NCBI GenBank assembly: GCA_964443785.1
Contig: CAYUER010000004.1
Coordinates: 2,234 to 48,572, forward strand
DNA: 46,339 bases
From: an uncultured Gammaproteobacteria bacterium
GTDB lineage: Bacteria; Patescibacteriota; Patescibacteriia; UBA1558; GWA2-36-10
Direction: 5' to 3'
Part shown: positions 1-4,890 of the stretch, one piece after another
Layout: each line of letters opens with the position of its first letter
Position numbering within the stretch: the stretch's first letter is position 1
The notes under the pieces: generated by a model
Told to the model about the DNA's origin: nothing
What the model saw: the letters and a program-made list of their open reading frames with translations, nothing else
Database searches by the model: none
Program-made: the position numbers and the translations under genes

Positions 1-57
1 TATTTAGTATCAATCTGTTATTTAGTTTATCATAACAGCCATTAACTGCAATATTAT

Positions 58-97
58 AAAAAAATTGCGCCCCTCGACCGGTGATCGGACGAGGGGC
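58..97 (-). terminator. intrinsic terminator of the 103..399 gene
   Basis: GC hairpin GCCCCTCG/CGAGGGGC (69-76 pairs 90-97) with inner CCG/CGG (78-80 pairs 86-88). On the minus strand it is followed by a T-run (A-run 58-64 on the plus strand). Confidence 0.7.
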
Positions 98-102
98 AGA
101 AT

Positions 103-399
103 TCAAGCAGAGGTGCGCTCCATGGTAGCCTTGTAGTGATGATCGAGCATGTCGCTGATCTTCCGAGCGTCGAGATTCATGCTCTTGAGCATTTCTTGGA
201 ACTTGGCATCCTGGGGGATGCGTCCGTTGTTGATGAAGATGGGGATCAGGACACCACTAAAGAGTCCTGAGTTTTCGTGACCATCTTCTTGCATGGTCCT
301 CAGTCTCTTCAGGGTAGACCAGAAGTGCTCGTCTTCTAGATTCGCCACCCAATGGATAGCGTGACTTTCGAAATGGAGAAGAGTAGGTTGTTTTGCCAC
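103..399 (-). CDS. hypothetical protein, high-GC cassette copy 1 (98 aa); weak similarity to the N-terminal half of the 2083..2547 product
   Basis: ORF with a GTG start preceded by AAGGAGG at 6-nt spacing. It has its own promoter and terminator. Codon style is GC-rich, unlike the neighbours. I recognise no family. Confidence 0.65.
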   Translation of the reverse strand: MAKQPTLLHFESHAIHWVANLEDEHFWSTLKRLRTMQEDGHENSGLFSGVLIPIFINNGRIPQDAKFQEMLKSMNLDARKISDMLDHHYKATMERTSA

Positions 400-445
400 A
401 AGCTTCCTCCTTGAAGAACGATGAACGGTTGTACGGGAACATCTT

Positions 446-474
446 ATACTAACATTTATTGGCTATTTAGTCAA
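446..474 (-). promoter_or_regulatory. sigma70-type promoter of cassette 1
   Basis: Minus strand reads TTGACT (469-474), a 17-nt spacer, then TAGTAT (446-451) with a TGn extension. The -35 region TTGACTAAAT is identical to that of cassette 2. Confidence 0.55.
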
Positions 475-533
475 TAGCGTCATTTGCCTGAAAGTACAGC
501 TTTGCTATAAAATAGAAGATATACATCATATTT

Positions 534-995
534 ATGTTAAAAATCACTATAGTAGCGGTCGGTAAAATCAAAGAGAAATTTTGGCAAACAGCCATAGAGG
601 AATATAGCAAAAGATTGAAGCCATATGCTGTACTTAATTTTGTAGAAATAAAAGCTGAGTCATTTTCTAGTCAAAATAAAAAACAGGCACAAGCTAATGA
701 AAATCAACGTCTTATAAATGCTTTAGAAAAATATAATAAACAAAATGTTTATTTATTAGCAGAAGCTGGTCAAGAATTTGATTCTCTAAAATTTGCAAAA
801 TTTATGGCCAAGCAGTCAGAGATTATTTTAGTCATTGGCGGAGCCTTGGGTTGGGCAGAGGAGATCAAACAAAAATATCCACAAACAATTTCTTTGTCTC
901 AGCTGACTATGCCTCATGAGATGGCGAGAGTAGTCTTACTAGAGCAAATATATAGAGCTGTGAGTATTATCAAAGGCAAAGAATATCATTATTAA
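534..995 (+). CDS. rlmH: 23S rRNA (pseudouridine1915-N3)-methyltransferase RlmH (SPOUT)
   Basis: 153 aa. N-terminal MLKITIVAVGKIK, a VIGGALGW glycine-rich loop and a C-terminal LLEQIYRA..YH tail are typical of RlmH. Confidence 0.85.
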   Translation: MLKITIVAVGKIKEKFWQTAIEEYSKRLKPYAVLNFVEIKAESFSSQNKKQAQANENQRLINALEKYNKQNVYLLAEAGQEFDSLKFAKFMAKQSEIILVIGGALGWAEEIKQKYPQTISLSQLTMPHEMARVVLLEQIYRAVSIIKGKEYHY

Positions 996-1003
996 GTAGT
1001 TTC

Positions 1004-1032
1004 TTGACTACTTTTTATTTTTACTATATAAT
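1004..1032 (+). promoter_or_regulatory. sigma70-type promoter of the arsR-sdpI pair
   Basis: TTGACT (1004-1009), a 17-nt spacer, then TATAAT (1027-1032). Confidence 0.65.
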
Positions 1033-1057
1033 TAGATATATATCTAAATATCTAATT
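1030..1057. promoter_or_regulatory. probable ArsR/SdpR-type operator (three half-sites)
   Basis: AATTAGATAT (1030-1039) is followed by its inverted partner ATATCTAA twice in tandem (1040-1047 and 1048-1055). TTAGATATATATCTAA (1032-1047) is a perfect 16-nt palindrome overlapping the -10 box and the transcription start. Confidence 0.5.
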
Positions 1058-1065
1058 AAATAGCC

Positions 1066-1335
1066 ATGTCTTTGACTAAAACCTTTGCTGCTCTATCAGA
1101 ACCAAATCGCCAGAAGATTTTGGATTTATTGAAAAAAGGCGAGTTGTCGGTCAATGAAATTGGTAAATATCTAGATGTGACTACTCCGACTTTGTCTCAT
1201 CACCTCGATATTTTGAAAAGAGCTGATTTGATTTCTAGTCGTCGTAGCGGTCAGCAAATTATTTATTCTCTAAACTTTAGTATTTTAGAAGAAGTAGCCG
1301 AAAAAATTGCGAAATTTTTAGCAATTAAAAAATAA
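1066..1335 (+). CDS. ArsR/SmtB-family (SdpR-like) transcriptional repressor
   Basis: 89 aa winged HTH: ALSEPNRQKILDLL...LSVNEIGKYLDVTTPTLSHHLDILKRADLI...R.GQQIIYSL. Confidence 0.85.
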   Translation: MSLTKTFAALSEPNRQKILDLLKKGELSVNEIGKYLDVTTPTLSHHLDILKRADLISSRRSGQQIIYSLNFSILEEVAEKIAKFLAIKK

Positions 1336-1354
1336 ATAATAATAAATTAAATTT

Positions 1355-2020
1355 ATGAGATCAGCAATTAAATTGAGTTGGAAAAGCGAAGCTTGGTGTA
1401 TCTTGGTCACCTTGGCGACTGTGGCTTTGAGTTTTTATTTTTATGCGCACTTTCCTGAGCAGGTAGTGGGTCATTGGAATTTTGCTGGCCAGCCAGATGA
1501 CTGGACTAGTAGAGCCGGCGGTGCTTTTGGTATGGTAGGAGTTTTGATTTTTATGTATGTTTTATTTTTGGCTTTGCCAATGCTTGATCCCAAAAAAGAT
1601 CGTTATGCGGATTTTGAAAAAGTTTATCATTTGTTCAAGAATATCATGGTAACTTTTTTTGCTGTTATTTATGTTTTATCTGGTCTATATAATTTAGGTT
1701 ATCCGATTCAGATTCAATTTTGGGTGCCCTGGTTGGTTGGTTTATTGATGATTTTGATTGGCAATTATTTAGGTAAATTGAAACGCAATTGGTTTGTCGG
1801 TATCAAAACACCTTGGACTCTGTCATCGGAAAATGTCTGGAACAAAACTCATCGGGTCGGTGGCTGGATGTTTATCGTCTTTGGTGTTTGCATCATCATC
1901 TCACCAAATTTACCCTATGCCTGGGGCGCTGGTATATTTGTCGGTGGTGCGGTACTAGCTACTTTTGGCTCAATGCTCTATTCCTATATAGTGTATCTAC
2001 AAGAGAAAAAAAATAAGTAA
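1355..2020 (+). CDS. SdpI/YhfL-family membrane protein (DUF1648 + SdpI immunity-like domain)
   Basis: 221 aa, multi-pass. N-terminal HFPEQVVGHWNFAGQPDDW (DUF1648-like). GNYLGKLKRNWFVGIKTPWTLSSENVWNKTHR matches the SdpI family core. It follows the ArsR gene after a 19-nt gap, as in sdpR-sdpI. Confidence 0.75.
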   Translation: MRSAIKLSWKSEAWCILVTLATVALSFYFYAHFPEQVVGHWNFAGQPDDWTSRAGGAFGMVGVLIFMYVLFLALPMLDPKKDRYADFEKVYHLFKNIMVTFFAVIYVLSGLYNLGYPIQIQFWVPWLVGLLMILIGNYLGKLKRNWFVGIKTPWTLSSENVWNKTHRVGGWMFIVFGVCIIISPNLPYAWGAGIFVGGAVLATFGSMLYSYIVYLQEKKNK

Positions 2021-2072
2021 AAAAAATTCAGGGCTCGTCTCGCTCTGCGTGAGCAGTAGCGGACGAGCCCTG
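2019..2072 (-). terminator. intrinsic terminator of the 2083..2547 gene (may also stop sdpI)
   Basis: Long GC hairpin: CAGGGCTCGTC (2029-2039) pairs GACGAGCCCTG (2062-2072), with inner CGCT/AGCG and CTGC/GCAG stems. On the minus strand a T-run follows (A-run 2019-2026), which overlaps the sdpI stop codon. Confidence 0.75.
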
Positions 2073-2082
2073 TGTTGTGTGC

Positions 2083-2547
2083 TTAGTGCACGCGGAGTCC
2101 CAGCCTGCGGGCCGTCAGTTCTAGCGCAGTAATGGCCTCGATGCGCCAGTGTCCTTTCTCATCCTTGGTGGCCCTCAGCTTTTTGGCTGCGATCAGTCGC
2201 CGCACTTCTCGTGGCGGTAGCCACAAGATTTGTGCTGCTTCGATGCAGCTGATGTGTCCGCTGAGCTGTTCAAAGATGAGGCGGATGTTCTCGCTGATGT
2301 CATGGGGATTTACTCTCAGCCTTCGGCAAAGCTGGGTAAAATCCATGTTCTCCGGGATGATGCCATCGGACAGGATAATGGGCCTGTAGATGTCGTTGAA
2401 CACCCTGACTTCATTGTCCTGTTTGCTGCCATGTCGTGCCAGCGAGATGCTGTAGACCAGGTTCACAGCCTCTTTGAACACCTCCTTTTGGATGTCGTCA
2501 GCCTTGGCCCACCAGGACAAGCAGGGGATCTCTTGGTTCAGGTCCAT
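2083..2547 (-). CDS. hypothetical protein, high-GC cassette copy 2: unknown N-terminal domain + C-terminal excisionase/MerR-type HTH
   Basis: AAGGAGG lies 5 nt before the ATG at 2547; an in-frame GTG at 2553 is an alternative start. The C-terminal ISCIEAAQILWLPPREVRRLIAAKKLRATKDEKGHWRI fits the HTH_17/excisionase pattern. The N-terminal half weakly resembles the 103..399 product. Confidence 0.7.
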   Translation of the reverse strand: MDLNQEIPCLSWWAKADDIQKEVFKEAVNLVYSISLARHGSKQDNEVRVFNDIYRPIILSDGIIPENMDFTQLCRRLRVNPHDISENIRLIFEQLSGHISCIEAAQILWLPPREVRRLIAAKKLRATKDEKGHWRIEAITALELTARRLGLRVH

Positions 2548-2607
2548 GTTCACCTCCTTGTAGACGTTGCATTGTGTGCGGTTGCCGGGCTAAAAGAGCG
2601 GAGGCGT

Positions 2608-2636
2608 ATTATGCACTATTTTAGAGATTTAGTCAA
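2608..2636 (-). promoter_or_regulatory. sigma70-type promoter of cassette 2, -35 box inside the elp3 3' end
   Basis: Minus strand reads TTGACT (2631-2636), a 17-nt spacer, then CATAAT (2608-2613). The -35 context TTGACTAAAT matches cassette 1. Confidence 0.5.
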
Positions 2637-4226
2637 GTAGGTGCCCTGAAGTTTGTAGCCTAGTTTGCGATAGTAATTGCGGACACCAATGCCAGAAATA
2701 ACGGCTATTTTTTTTATTTTATAGTCGCGAGTGATTGTTTCAGCTTCTTGCATGAGGCGTTTGCCTAGGCCCAGGTGTTGGGTTTTGCCAATTTCATCAT
2801 CCAGATTTTCATCGTAGACTGGTATCATCTGGCCATAGACATGGAGCTCGCGCACGATAGAGGCACTTTTGAGCTCCGGAAAGATGTTATTTTTTAAATC
2901 ATGATTGATACGCAAACGCAAAAAAGCATAGACCTTGCTGCGGTCTTTATTTTCAAAGCTTAAAAATATTTCTTTACCACCACTAGCGTCATATTCGCGG
3001 TGGACCAATTCTAAATCTTTGAGTTCATATTTATCATCGCGCACTTCGCGACAGCGTAAGCACTGACAAGAGGCTCCCTGTTTTTTGAGTTCAGCTTGTA
3101 AAAATTGGCGGAGATTAGTTATTTTATTGCCAGCTACTATACTTTCTTCTGGAATATCGCGAATCAGGCGATTGATACGCATGTAGGGTGGGACTATTTT
3201 TTTGACAGCGAGGAGCAAATCCAGCAATTGTTTTTTGGTATATGGTTTATATTTTTTAGCTTTGTACCAGCCATAGAGTTCAGCAAATTCGTTGACTACA
3301 CAGGGATATATTTTGATTTGGTCAGGTTGCAAATCAGGGGAGTTGAAAACATACTGAAACATAGCCAAATCTTTTTTGGGAGTAGAGCCAGGTAAATCTG
3401 GCATATAGTGGTGATCTACTTTGAAGCCGGTTTCTTTGAGTAGGTGAGTAGCCTTGATACTTTGCTCAATACTATGTCCGCGTTTGATGAGCTCTAGTAT
3501 TTTATTATCAGTATGCTGGACACCGAGCTGGACGCGTGTGGTACCCAGTCGACGCATTTTTTTAAGCTCAGTCGGGTTGATATAGTCTGGTCTAGTTTCT
3601 AGAGTCAGACCAATGATTTTATATTTAGCAGTTTCGTTTATTTTTTGTTCTTTTTCCAAAGTAAAAGCTTTTCTTTTTTTCTTTTGGCCGAATATGTTGG
3701 CGGCATAAAAACAATCACGGATAAATTCATCTTGATAGTGAGTAGGATAGACAGACCAAGTGCCACCCAAGACCAGTATTTCTAGTTTGTCGACAGCGTG
3801 TCCATTATTTTCTAGAGCTTGGATGCGCATAGTCACCTGGCGAAAGGGATCAAAGAGATTCATCTTGGCCCGGGCGGCGGCTGGCTCATTGGACAGATAG
3901 CTTTTGGGCATGCCGACCTCTGTCGGGCAGTAGACACATTTGCCAGGGCAGACAAAGGGCTTGGTGAGCACCGTGATGACTGATACGCCTGATAGTGTTC
4001 GTACAGCTCTTTTTTTGAGTAGCTGTTCGAAGCTACTATCAGCTTTTATTTTATTTTTTTTCAACAATTGACGATAGGCAAAAATCAAGGTAGCCTTAGT
4101 ATTGGCTGGCAGTTTGCGAGAGCTAAAAGATTGGCGCAATTGTTTAGAAAAATCCAAATCAGTGGCATATTTTTGCCCCATGAGCTCCAGCACAATTTCT
4201 TCGTATATTTTATTATTTTTTTCCAT
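2616..4226 (-). CDS. elp3: Elp3-type tRNA uridine(34) carboxymethyl-forming enzyme homolog (radical SAM + GNAT acetyltransferase)
   Basis: Radical-SAM cluster motif CPGKCVYCP. ETRPD, RVQLGVQ and KxDHHYMPDLPGS blocks and the GNAT motif QHLGLGKRLM all align by eye with Dehalococcoides and eukaryotic Elp3. The ATG at 4226 (MEKNNK) is preferred over the ORF-track start at 4373; the ATG at 4178 is also possible. Confidence 0.85.
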   Translation of the reverse strand: MEKNNKIYEEIVLELMGQKYATDLDFSKQLRQSFSSRKLPANTKATLIFAYRQLLKKNKIKADSSFEQLLKKRAVRTLSGVSVITVLTKPFVCPGKCVYCPTEVGMPKSYLSNEPAAARAKMNLFDPFRQVTMRIQALENNGHAVDKLEILVLGGTWSVYPTHYQDEFIRDCFYAANIFGQKKKRKAFTLEKEQKINETAKYKIIGLTLETRPDYINPTELKKMRRLGTTRVQLGVQHTDNKILELIKRGHSIEQSIKATHLLKETGFKVDHHYMPDLPGSTPKKDLAMFQYVFNSPDLQPDQIKIYPCVVNEFAELYGWYKAKKYKPYTKKQLLDLLLAVKKIVPPYMRINRLIRDIPEESIVAGNKITNLRQFLQAELKKQGASCQCLRCREVRDDKYELKDLELVHREYDASGGKEIFLSFENKDRSKVYAFLRLRINHDLKNNIFPELKSASIVRELHVYGQMIPVYDENLDDEIGKTQHLGLGKRLMQEAETITRDYKIKKIAVISGIGVRNYYRKLGYKLQGTYLTKSLK

Positions 4227-4890
4227 GAGTGATATCAAAAAAGATTTGCAAAATGTGTATGACTCTATAGCCAAAGACTTTTCTAATACTAGATATGTGC
4301 CTTGGCAGGAGTTATCCGTTTTTATACCATATTTGCCTGACGGGGGCAAGATTTTAGACTTGGGTTGTGGCAATGGTCGCTTGTTGAAAGTGATCCAATC
4401 AGCTGGTAAAAAATACGAATATTTGGGTGTTGATTTTAGTGCTCAGTTATTAGAACAAGCTCGTCAGCAATTTCCAGATGAAAATTTTGAGCAAGCCGAC
4501 ATGAGTAAACTAGATTTTCCAAGCAATAGTTTTGATGTCATTTGTCTCGTGGCTTCTTTTCATCATCTAGATAACAAAAAAGAAAGAGAGGAATTGTTAA
4601 ATAAAATGTATTGTTGGTTGAAACCCGGTGGAGTACTTTTTATGACCAACTGGAATCTACTGCAGCCAAGGTATATCCAATATATTTTCAAAAATATTAC
4701 ACAGAAAAAATCTTGGAATGATTTTTTTATACCTTACACCTCACCAGATAGGCAGAGTGTCAATTGGCGCTACTATCATCATTTTACCAAATTAGAGCTA
4801 AAGTCTTTATTATTAAAAGCTGGTTTCAAGCTAGAACCATTGGGTCTTTACAAAAGTAAATACAATTTAAATTGTCTAGTGAAAAAATAG
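4225..4890 (+). CDS. Trm9/ALKBH8-type class I SAM-dependent methyltransferase (putative tRNA cm5U34 methyltransferase)
   Basis: Matches remembered yeast Trm9 blocks:
- VY..IA..FS.TRY.PW (here VYDSIAKDFSNTRYVPW)
- DLGCGNG
- SFHHL....ER.......LKPGG......W
- DFFIPY
- RYYHHFTKLEL
Start taken at MSDIKK (ATG 4225). Confidence 0.75.
   Translation: MSDIKKDLQNVYDSIAKDFSNTRYVPWQELSVFIPYLPDGGKILDLGCGNGRLLKVIQSAGKKYEYLGVDFSAQLLEQARQQFPDENFEQADMSKLDFPSNSFDVICLVASFHHLDNKKEREELLNKMYCWLKPGGVLFMTNWNLLQPRYIQYIFKNITQKKSWNDFFIPYTSPDRQSVNWRYYHHFTKLELKSLLLKAGFKLEPLGLYKSKYNLNCLVKK

Follow-up and report, generated by a model that had tools for sequence, protein, structure and literature searches.

BldC of Streptomyces and RacA of Bacillus subtilis bind DNA as multimers. 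They are chromosomal regulators or architectural proteins and not recombination factors, and their DNA-binding domains (PDB 6ama, 6amk, 5i44) are MerR-like winged helices without an effector domain. Excisionases of the HTH_17 kind (PF12728, TIGR01764), for example Xis gp37 of mycobacteriophage Pukovnik and Xis of Tn916, carry the same type of winged helix, and in these proteins too the type assembles on DNA as multimers (see also PMC11963761). Here we analysed a gene for a protein with such a winged helix in a 46,339-nucleotide (nt) stretch of contig CAYUER010000004.1 from a member of the Patescibacteria (assembly GCA_964443785.1, genome G000 below; 814 kb in 53 contigs, 39.2% G+C). This whole stretch, which lies on the contig that we call C4, is referred to as the window. 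The gene, X2, encodes 154 amino acids (aa) beside elp3; an initial annotation had described it as the second of two GC-rich cassettes. The first cassette is called X1, and X denotes the family of both. Our data indicate that X2 is probably a resident, vertically inherited, family-specific Patescibacteria gene for a DNA-binding regulator or architectural protein, with X1 as a partner that lacks the helix-turn-helix (HTH), and not a mobile cassette.

The C-terminal 50 or so residues of X2 superpose on the DNA-binding domains of BldC and RacA, and RacA is the best sequence-profile match. Unlike these proteins, X2 has a 98-residue N-terminal helical domain without a fold match, its HTH is C-terminal and its DNA binding is a prediction. 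X2 shares the winged-helix fold and the Pfam family with the excisionases, but it has no partner integrase or attachment (att) repeats, its location has been stable over family-level time and it scores below the cut-off of TIGR01764. Phage 'morons' are extra genes with their own promoter, their own terminator and a deviant composition, set between conserved genes. Like them, X2 forms a self-contained unit, with a promoter, a gene and a terminator, that is deviant in G+C and stands between two conserved genes. It differs from them in lying in a cellular chromosome, in having a promoter position that is also found in genomes without X2 and in its apparent vertical inheritance across genera.

The mode of translation invites a further comparison. 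In Bacteroidetes, which rarely use Shine-Dalgarno (SD) sequences, the anti-SD is kept sequestered, and the few strong SDs serve to regulate bS21 and bS18 (Jha et al. 2020, PMC7797042). Some Parcubacteria have no anti-SD altogether (PMC9297842), whereas the lineage of X2 retains it. As in the Bacteroidetes, almost no ordinary gene of G000 has an SD, relatives keep the anti-SD and a small class of genes has strong SDs. Unlike bS21 and bS18, the SD-led genes here are GC-rich, fast-evolving accessory genes and not ribosomal protein genes.

X2 is a fast-evolving gene under purifying selection

The open reading frame (ORF) listed at 2083-2553 on the minus strand gives 156 aa from a GTG that lies inside the SD AAGGAGG (2553-2559). 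An ATG at 2545-2547 stands 5 nt past this SD, and close database relatives are all 154 aa long. X2 is therefore read as 154 aa rather than 156, with its coding sequence at 2083-2547 (minus strand) and its stop codon at 2083-2085. Every element described in the initial annotation was recovered, namely the 154/156-aa ORF, the GC-rich stretch, the promoter over the elp3 stop codon and the terminator that reaches the sdpI stop codon. The ratio of nonsynonymous to synonymous substitutions (dN/dS) is 0.24-0.32 in X2 versus 0.04-0.05 in elp3. X2 is a real gene that evolves fast under relaxed purifying selection.

GC-rich DNA yields long ORFs on both strands, such as 2230-2640 (plus strand), and X2 might on that ground be taken for no protein gene at all, either an ORF that arose by chance in a structured, GC-rich RNA or the product of an assembly chimera. 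We regard this as extremely unlikely, given the dN/dS values, the conservation of ORF length across genera, a confident AlphaFold model, the Pfam HTH match and the finding of no known RNA family (Rfam) in positions 1-4600 of the window. The same gene arrangement in independent assemblies from different studies argues against a chimera. Antisense to X2 there are two long ORFs, the one just named (136 aa) and 2132-2389 (plus strand, 85 aa). They are a by-product of the GC-rich sequence, with no evidence of being genes.

Domain structure and fold of X2

Residues 1-98 (2254-2547, minus strand) form a family-specific N-terminal domain of four helices, which holds a 'PI..DG.IP' module common to X1. 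Residues 99-154 (2086-2253, minus strand) form a winged HTH of the MerR/excisionase type. The AlphaFold model of X2, built from 14 family members, has a mean predicted local distance difference test score (pLDDT) of 88.5 and a predicted template modelling score (pTM) of 0.80. It shows four helices (residues 18-96) and then a winged helix (101-148) made of helices at 101-108 and 112-120, strands at 126-128 and 134-137 and a last helix at 138-148. In Foldseek searches only the last 50 or so residues match BldC, RacA and Pukovnik Xis, with template modelling (TM) scores of at most 0.84 of the target and E values of at least 0.03. The target-normalised TM scores are about 0.73-0.84 for BldC and Pukovnik Xis (root-mean-square deviation 1.1-2.5 Å) and 0.61-0.64 for RacA; many phage excisionase/MerR-like proteins are matched as well. 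In the model, then, X2 has an HTH fold with a beta-hairpin wing that is superposable on solved members of the type.

Sequence profiles point the same way. The family profile, searched against PDB sequences, found RacA (E = 1.4e-4) and Xis gp37 (E = 2.9e-4), and also P2 Cox and Tn916 Xis. Pfam HTH_17 matches residues 105-138 of the 156-aa form at 27.7 bits against a cut-off of 27, and a genome scan gave 27.5 bits for X2 with its neighbours, a narrow margin over the cut-off. The excisionase-type HTH proposed for the C-terminus in the initial annotation thus held up in profile searches and in fold matches. Besides X2, the genome encodes one HTH_17 protein, on contig C11.

The N-terminal domain gave no match in Pfam, NCBIfam, PHROGs, PADLOC, the PDB profile search or Foldseek, and modelled alone it reaches a pLDDT of 84. 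Its relationship to X1 is clear from BLASTP (E = 1e-5) and from profile-profile comparison with hhalign (probability 97%, E = 8.5e-11 over 50 columns), and this bears out the earlier description of a region of no known kind common to both cassettes. With its new four-helix domain ahead of a MerR-type winged helix, X2 represents a domain architecture that is new among HTH proteins of the MerR/excisionase type.

The X family has a conserved position in one family of Patescibacteria

The DNA downstream of elp3 was taken from 42 genomes and scanned with a hidden Markov model of the X family. X is the very next ORF after elp3, on the same strand and after a gap of 50-146 nt, in 21 genomes. In one more (G020) it lies farther downstream of elp3 and adjoins glyA, which brings the total to 22 genomes in 13 genera, all of one family (f1). 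Among 60 relatives, X2 is present in five of the six other genomes of its genus g1 (six of seven with G000), and weaker matches occur in other genera of the family. Beyond these relatives the family is rare. A word-based search among 5.8 billion proteins gave only 7-10 clusters, and an exhaustive profile search among 1.84 billion representatives gave a few dozen full-length clusters, the remainder being matches to the HTH only.

Only f1 carries X, and the ancestral arrangement across the order is elp3-glyA-folD. The gene elp3 is directly followed by glyA in seven genomes of f1 and in three genomes from other families of the order; the elp3-glyA gap is 4-15 nt in five of these ten, and folD comes next after glyA in genomes without X where the fetched stretch was long enough. 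X is therefore an addition made within one family. It is an insertion only relative to this order-wide arrangement, and it is old. Two relatives (79% and 48% identical) share the gene order of the window, with elp3, X2, the opposite-strand genes sdpI, arsR and rlmH, an X1-like ORF and, where the contig extends, glyA. In the window, elp3 (radical SAM and GNAT domains), the conserved neighbour upstream of the X family, occupies 2616-4226 on the minus strand, and the rlmH-arsR-sdpI block, which lies between X2 and X1 in most genomes of the genus, occupies 534-2020 on the plus strand.

The locus varies in several genomes. The congener G006 (L069, G006:C22:3500-8100) has elp3, a 125-aa X1-like ORF, glyA and folD, with neither X2 nor the rlmH block. 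The gene rlmH was not found anywhere in G006 (completeness 100%), nor in G031, G010 and G015, so the rlmH-arsR-sdpI block is itself variable. A third family member of 161 aa (L013:5350-5835; GC content at third codon positions, GC3, 0.60), 24% identical to X2, lies between elp3 and X2 in the L013 genome. In G020 (L063, G020:C6:1500-7200), a 372-aa ORF of GC 0.44 at 2469-3587 stands between elp3 and the X gene, and it could be a gene of a mobile element. In the congener G002 (L034, G002:C6:30720-34415), an in-frame TAG interrupts elp3 near its 3' end, which could reflect a pseudogene, a sequencing error or a recoding event.

Descent of X2 and exchange among congeners

In the X tree, genus g1 forms a single clade (support 98/97) and the members of g6 stand together. 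G031, which is labelled g12, groups with g9 in both the X tree and the Elp3 tree. Branches are several-fold longer for X, with a median terminal branch of 0.49 versus 0.17 for Elp3. DNA identity to the closest relative, the L013 genome, is 0.79-0.89 in X2 and 0.78-0.89 over most of elp3. DNA identity to G005 is 0.56-0.62 in X2 and 0.79-0.94 in elp3. The Elp3 of the window is nearest to those of G005 and G003, and its X2 and sdpI are nearest to those of G001 and L013, with a breakpoint near 2550-2616. Recombination that exchanged alleles, or else paralogy that went unnoticed, would account for this discordance within the genus. We read the pattern as mosaic homologous exchange among congeners and not as transposition. 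Synonymous divergence (dS) rises along the locus from X2 (0.46) through sdpI (0.58) and arsR (0.79) to rlmH (1.08). The low dS of X2 was considered as proof of synonymous constraint, which is not established, because a recombination tract fits the gradient equally well.

These data bear on the idea that X2 is a currently mobile, site-specific single-gene cassette of an integron- or moron-like kind, moved in trans by a recombinase with its gene elsewhere and repeatedly targeting the 3' end of elp3. Such movement could account for the patchiness of X among genera, the congener G006 without X2, the extra tandem paralogue in L013, the tree discordance with its breakpoint and the patchiness of other GC-rich genes of G000 among relatives. 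However, the X tree follows the genera, the divergence of X2 from its nearest relative equals that of its flanks, and G000 has X1 and X2 as its sole members of the family, both at the elp3 locus. The unit is not bordered by attC-like or direct repeats, and genomes without X have a promoter that corresponds to the flanking one. We hold a mobile cassette of this sort to be very unlikely.

A promoter at the end of elp3 is also present in genomes without X

X2 has a predicted promoter of the sigma-70 type, TTGACT-17-CATAAT (2636-2608, minus strand), which matches the consensus at 10 of 12 positions. Its -35 box is at 2631-2636 and its -10 box at 2608-2613, 2 nt past the elp3 stop codon (2616-2618), all on the minus strand. 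As had been noticed before, the -35 box lies within the last codons of elp3, where Leu-Thr codons supply TTGACT. From the position of the -10 box, transcription would start near 2601, giving a 5' leader at 2548-2601 (minus strand) that has a GC content of 0.56, is poor in G and contains the SD AAGGAGG. At the other end, an intrinsic terminator is predicted at 2019-2072 (minus strand; -36.2 kcal/mol, z = -9.35). It consists of a hairpin at 2029-2072 and a T-run at 2019-2026, and the T-run overlaps the TAA (2018-2020) of the convergent gene sdpI, also as described earlier.

The initial annotation took this base-tight packing of an oddly composed unit to be what a precise insertion would give. 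Packing of this kind is normal in the genome, with a median of 34 nt between genes and no more than 20 nt in 44% of the gaps, and tightness is thus no mark of insertion here. The position across the family, a tree that follows the genera and identity like that of the flanks likewise speak against a recent insertion of foreign DNA. Genomes with and without X have the same Elp3 C-terminus, GTY(L/M/V)TK.L(K)*. In the clade without X the junction reads …GTGACTAAAAATTTAAAA TAG TGCTATAATAAAGTC ATG(glyA), with a -35 box GTGACT from Elp3 Val-Thr codons and a -10 region TGCTATAAT immediately 3' of the elp3 stop codon. In the same frame the junction of the window reads …TTGACTAAATCTCTAAAA TAG TGCATAATA and continues into the GC-rich leader of X2. 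A comparable promoter at the end of elp3 is present without X, where it drives glyA; the promoter in the window is not the cassette's own, and X lies downstream of it. A comparison with relatives lacking the unit, as to their elp3 3' end and the composition of the intergenic DNA, had been proposed as a check on the insertion. The Elp3 C-terminus proved to be the same in those relatives, but GC-rich intergenic DNA is absent from them.

In four relatives without X (L029, L033, L041 and L046), TATAAT stands directly past the elp3 stop codon and glyA starts 6 nt later. The glyA mRNA of such relatives looks essentially leaderless, with a putative promoter within elp3. An SD precedes X in most genera. 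The promoter region of X2 is conserved as TAATAC(T/G)CCT(T/C)CGCTCTTT in four congeners, including G003 and G005, where identity of the X protein to that of the window is only 36-49%. A CCUCC-like motif past the -10 box is probably located at the transcription start or ahead of it.

The two cassette promoters had also been said to share a motif as a possible target of X2. The exact sequence TTGACTAAAT does occur only at these two promoters, but with one mismatch its count is no higher than chance. As a shared operator it is a weak candidate, since the two copies are the two -35 regions, one of them fixed by Elp3 codons. A leader that sequesters the SD, or an RNA switch, was rejected because the leaders of eight units, that of X2 included, fold no better than shuffled sequences (z from -0.05 to +1.47).

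Signals of mobility and the origin of X2

The initial annotation had remarked that neither an integrase nor a flanking direct repeat is visible, and our searches confirmed this. Contig C4 encodes no recombinase; the tyrosine recombinases of the genome are confined to contigs C9, C49 and C28, and no serine recombinase was found in the genome. Around X2 there are no flanking direct repeats, and no imperfect inverted repeats other than the terminator. X2 does not look like a recent foreign island undergoing amelioration, as it is found in six of seven g1 genomes and in 13 genera and is persistently GC-rich. Nor does it stand in the context of a functional excisionase, with no partner integrase and no att repeats around it. 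It has its own promoter and intrinsic terminator, with no attC-like repeat and no integrase nearby, which is not the make-up of an integron cassette. It does form a moron-like unit of predicted promoter, ORF and predicted terminator with a composition unlike its flanks; its neighbours, however, are elp3, sdpI, arsR, rlmH and glyA, and it has no PHROG match that would place it in a phage or prophage. A recent foreign insertion is not supported, and X2 is an old resident gene.

A more distant mobile origin is a separate matter. An excisionase or phage regulator could have landed between the elp3-end promoter and glyA in the ancestor of the family, lost its recombinase and been kept as a host regulator. 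This concerns the origin of X2 and is compatible with the present role that we propose. The nearest folds and profiles include Pukovnik gp37, Tn916 Xis, P2 Cox and many phage HTH proteins, the X unit is inserted relative to the order-wide elp3-glyA adjacency, and it is self-contained with a deviant composition. We nevertheless consider such a relic unlikely as an explanation. There is no recombinase or att-like repeat near X2, X2 has neither a PHROG nor a PADLOC match, its full-length relatives amount to so few clusters, and the same fold occurs in the non-mobile regulators BldC and RacA, so that the fold alone is no pointer to a mobile origin. Of the two possibilities raised in the initial annotation, a domesticated regulator or the relic of a mobile element, the regulator is favoured.

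Several observations weigh against X2 as a vertically inherited, resident regulator. The presence of X is patchy across genera, and repeated gain is possible. Paralogues have been gained and lost at the locus, with the extra copy in L013 and only X1 in G006, and within the genus the X2 tree conflicts with the Elp3 tree. The HTH_17 score is barely above the Pfam cut-off, and the TIGR01764 excisionase-family domain is below the NCBIfam cut-off (20.5 versus 28.8 bits). The N-terminal domain has no known relative (best Foldseek E = 2.2), and its role is a guess. This reading also does not explain the persistent GC-richness of X2.

X1 and the proposed mode of action

X1 is a paralogue without the HTH, encoded at 103-399 on the minus strand (98 aa, GTG start, SD AAGGAGG, GC3 0.62). 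It has a promoter TTGACT-17-TAGTAT at 446-474 and a terminator of hairpin and T-run at 59-97 (both minus strand; -26 kcal/mol, z = -5.17 for the terminator). Just left of the window (G000:C4, about 2130-2233), between X1 and glyA, lies a run of N with the same sequence of about 50 nt (AATATTGCAGTTAATGGCTGTTATGATAAACTAAATAACAGATTGATA) on either side, which looks like an unmerged scaffold join.

Across genomes the X proteins fall into two size groups, of 105-156 aa and of 234-267 aa. The longer ones are fusions in which an additional X1-like module precedes X2; they occur in genera g6, g9 and g16, and in G031 a 95-aa X1-like ORF stands immediately before a 149-aa X2-like ORF. Because an X1-like module is fused to X2 or adjoins it in other genera, X1 is likely to be a partner that modulates X2.

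In the mechanism that we propose, the X family occupies a variable spot between elp3 and glyA. X2 would be made as its own transcript, from the sigma-70-type promoter over the elp3 stop codon, with a leader of 50-60 nt containing the SD and a strong terminator. The protein probably binds DNA through its C-terminal winged helix of the BldC/RacA/Xis kind, and the most likely role of its four-helix domain is to bind a partner or further copies of X2. X1, which consists of the N-terminal module only, may interact with X2 and modulate it, as the fusions suggest. X1 and X2 would then be a regulator-modulator pair or a two-part architectural protein, with the promoter region of X2 itself and the glyA-folD promoter as candidate targets.

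It has to be asked whether X is tied to Elp3 or to one-carbon metabolism and regulates elp3, a trm9-like gene or glyA-folD, which would explain its fixed position. In 13 genera X is placed between elp3 and glyA, and it follows the promoter from which glyA is driven where X is missing. However, X2 is bounded by its own terminator, a three-gene block separates it from glyA in this genus, and many genomes with elp3-glyA-folD do well without X. The conserved position may only mark the ancestral insertion site. A link of this kind seems to us a doubtful proposition. The codon usage of X2 was also considered as a link to Elp3, through avoidance of AAA, GAA and CAA, and this was unsupported, as the shift is general and is shared by about 20 unlinked genes.

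GC-richness and SD-led translation

The G+C content is 0.51-0.57 in 200-nt windows over 2001-2600 and mostly 0.29-0.45 in flanking windows. X2 has a GC content of 0.548 and a GC3 of 0.72, which ranks 12th among the 746 ORFs of the genome (mean GC3 0.38, standard deviation 0.083). G+C is also high outside the coding sequence, at 0.56 in the leader and 0.55 at the 3' end compared with 0.355 in all intergenic DNA, and the whole transcription unit is therefore GC-rich, beyond its codons. The GC3 of X is above that of its own elp3 in all 22 genomes, which are kin and not 22 independent trials; the 13 genera agree. The values for X and elp3 are, for example, 0.82 versus 0.37 in G034, and 0.16 versus 0.10 in G013, a genome of 27% GC. 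High-expression codon bias was rejected as an explanation, since X2 shows a general GC shift unlike the codon use of EF-Tu (EF-Tu: GC3 0.38, CTG 0; X2: CTG 0.53, AAG 0.50).

Polarised third-position changes among three close sequences gave 28 GC-to-AT and 15 AT-to-GC changes in X2, which are small counts. The loss from GC to AT per GC third-position site is 0.26 in X2 versus 0.45 in elp3. The implied equilibrium GC3, again from small counts, is 0.54 versus 0.40-0.47 for the flanking genes. These data suggest that GC is lost more slowly in X2 than in its neighbours and that X2 is not in free decay.

An SD (GGAGG or AGGAG at the proper distance before the start) precedes 14 of the 22 ORFs with a GC3 of at least 0.6, and 6-10% of ORFs in the other GC3 classes when starts are chosen generously; by stricter criteria the figure falls to 1-3%. 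In about 40-45% of ordinary ORFs a -10-like hexamer stands 4-12 nt ahead of the start, versus 19% in the control, and the 14 SD-led ORFs rarely carry such a start-proximal -10. Among the GC-rich, SD-led genes are those for a pilin-like protein and a lipoprotein, along with orphans that show no mutual similarity. A gene for a type IV pilin-like protein (FTLIELMIVVVI…) at G000:C22:305-709 has a GC3 of 0.73 and its counterpart L106 in G031 one of 0.81, and in both genera it ranks with the most GC-rich of the SD-led genes. Two other GC-rich genes of G000 are patchy among relatives; they are GC-rich in most f1 carriers and less so or not at all in other families.

The anti-SD was read from the 16S rRNA of relatives. 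In a congener and three members of the family the 3' end is …GGAUCACCUCCUUUCU (core ...CACCUCCUUUCU), which is intact, and the anti-SD is therefore intact in the lineage. In the complete genome of G031, which belongs to another genus, AGGAGG-N4-9-ATG occurs 65 times, compared with 22 times for the reversed control. Among the first 30 of these sites, the 20 with an ORF of at least 60 aa have a mean GC3 of 0.57 and a GC of 0.49 versus 0.39 in the flanks.

In a lineage whose ordinary genes lack an SD or are leaderless, X1 and X2 might belong to a separately controlled class, a few dozen GC-rich, leadered, SD-led and terminator-bounded single-gene units that selection has kept in this condition since early in the history of the family. 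Their translation would be set by the availability of the anti-SD, as a switchable second 'dialect' with X2 as a DNA-binding regulator inside it. This is a speculative extension to which we give little credence. A literature search found no published account of a two-dialect pattern of SD-led GC-rich genes and ordinary genes.

Implications

Our study places X2 among the GC-rich, SD-led genes of Patescibacteria, as an old and well-resolved example of the class. In annotating these reduced genomes, a mobile insertion should not be called from deviant G+C, even when it is combined with tight boundaries and a helix of the excisionase type. The series of X1 alone, X1 beside X2 and X1 fused to X2 predicts a protein-protein interaction between the two. 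The locus can be aligned over 13 genera, and here a GC-rich, SD-led unit has persisted in an AT-rich, SD-poor genome, which makes the question of this persistence testable.

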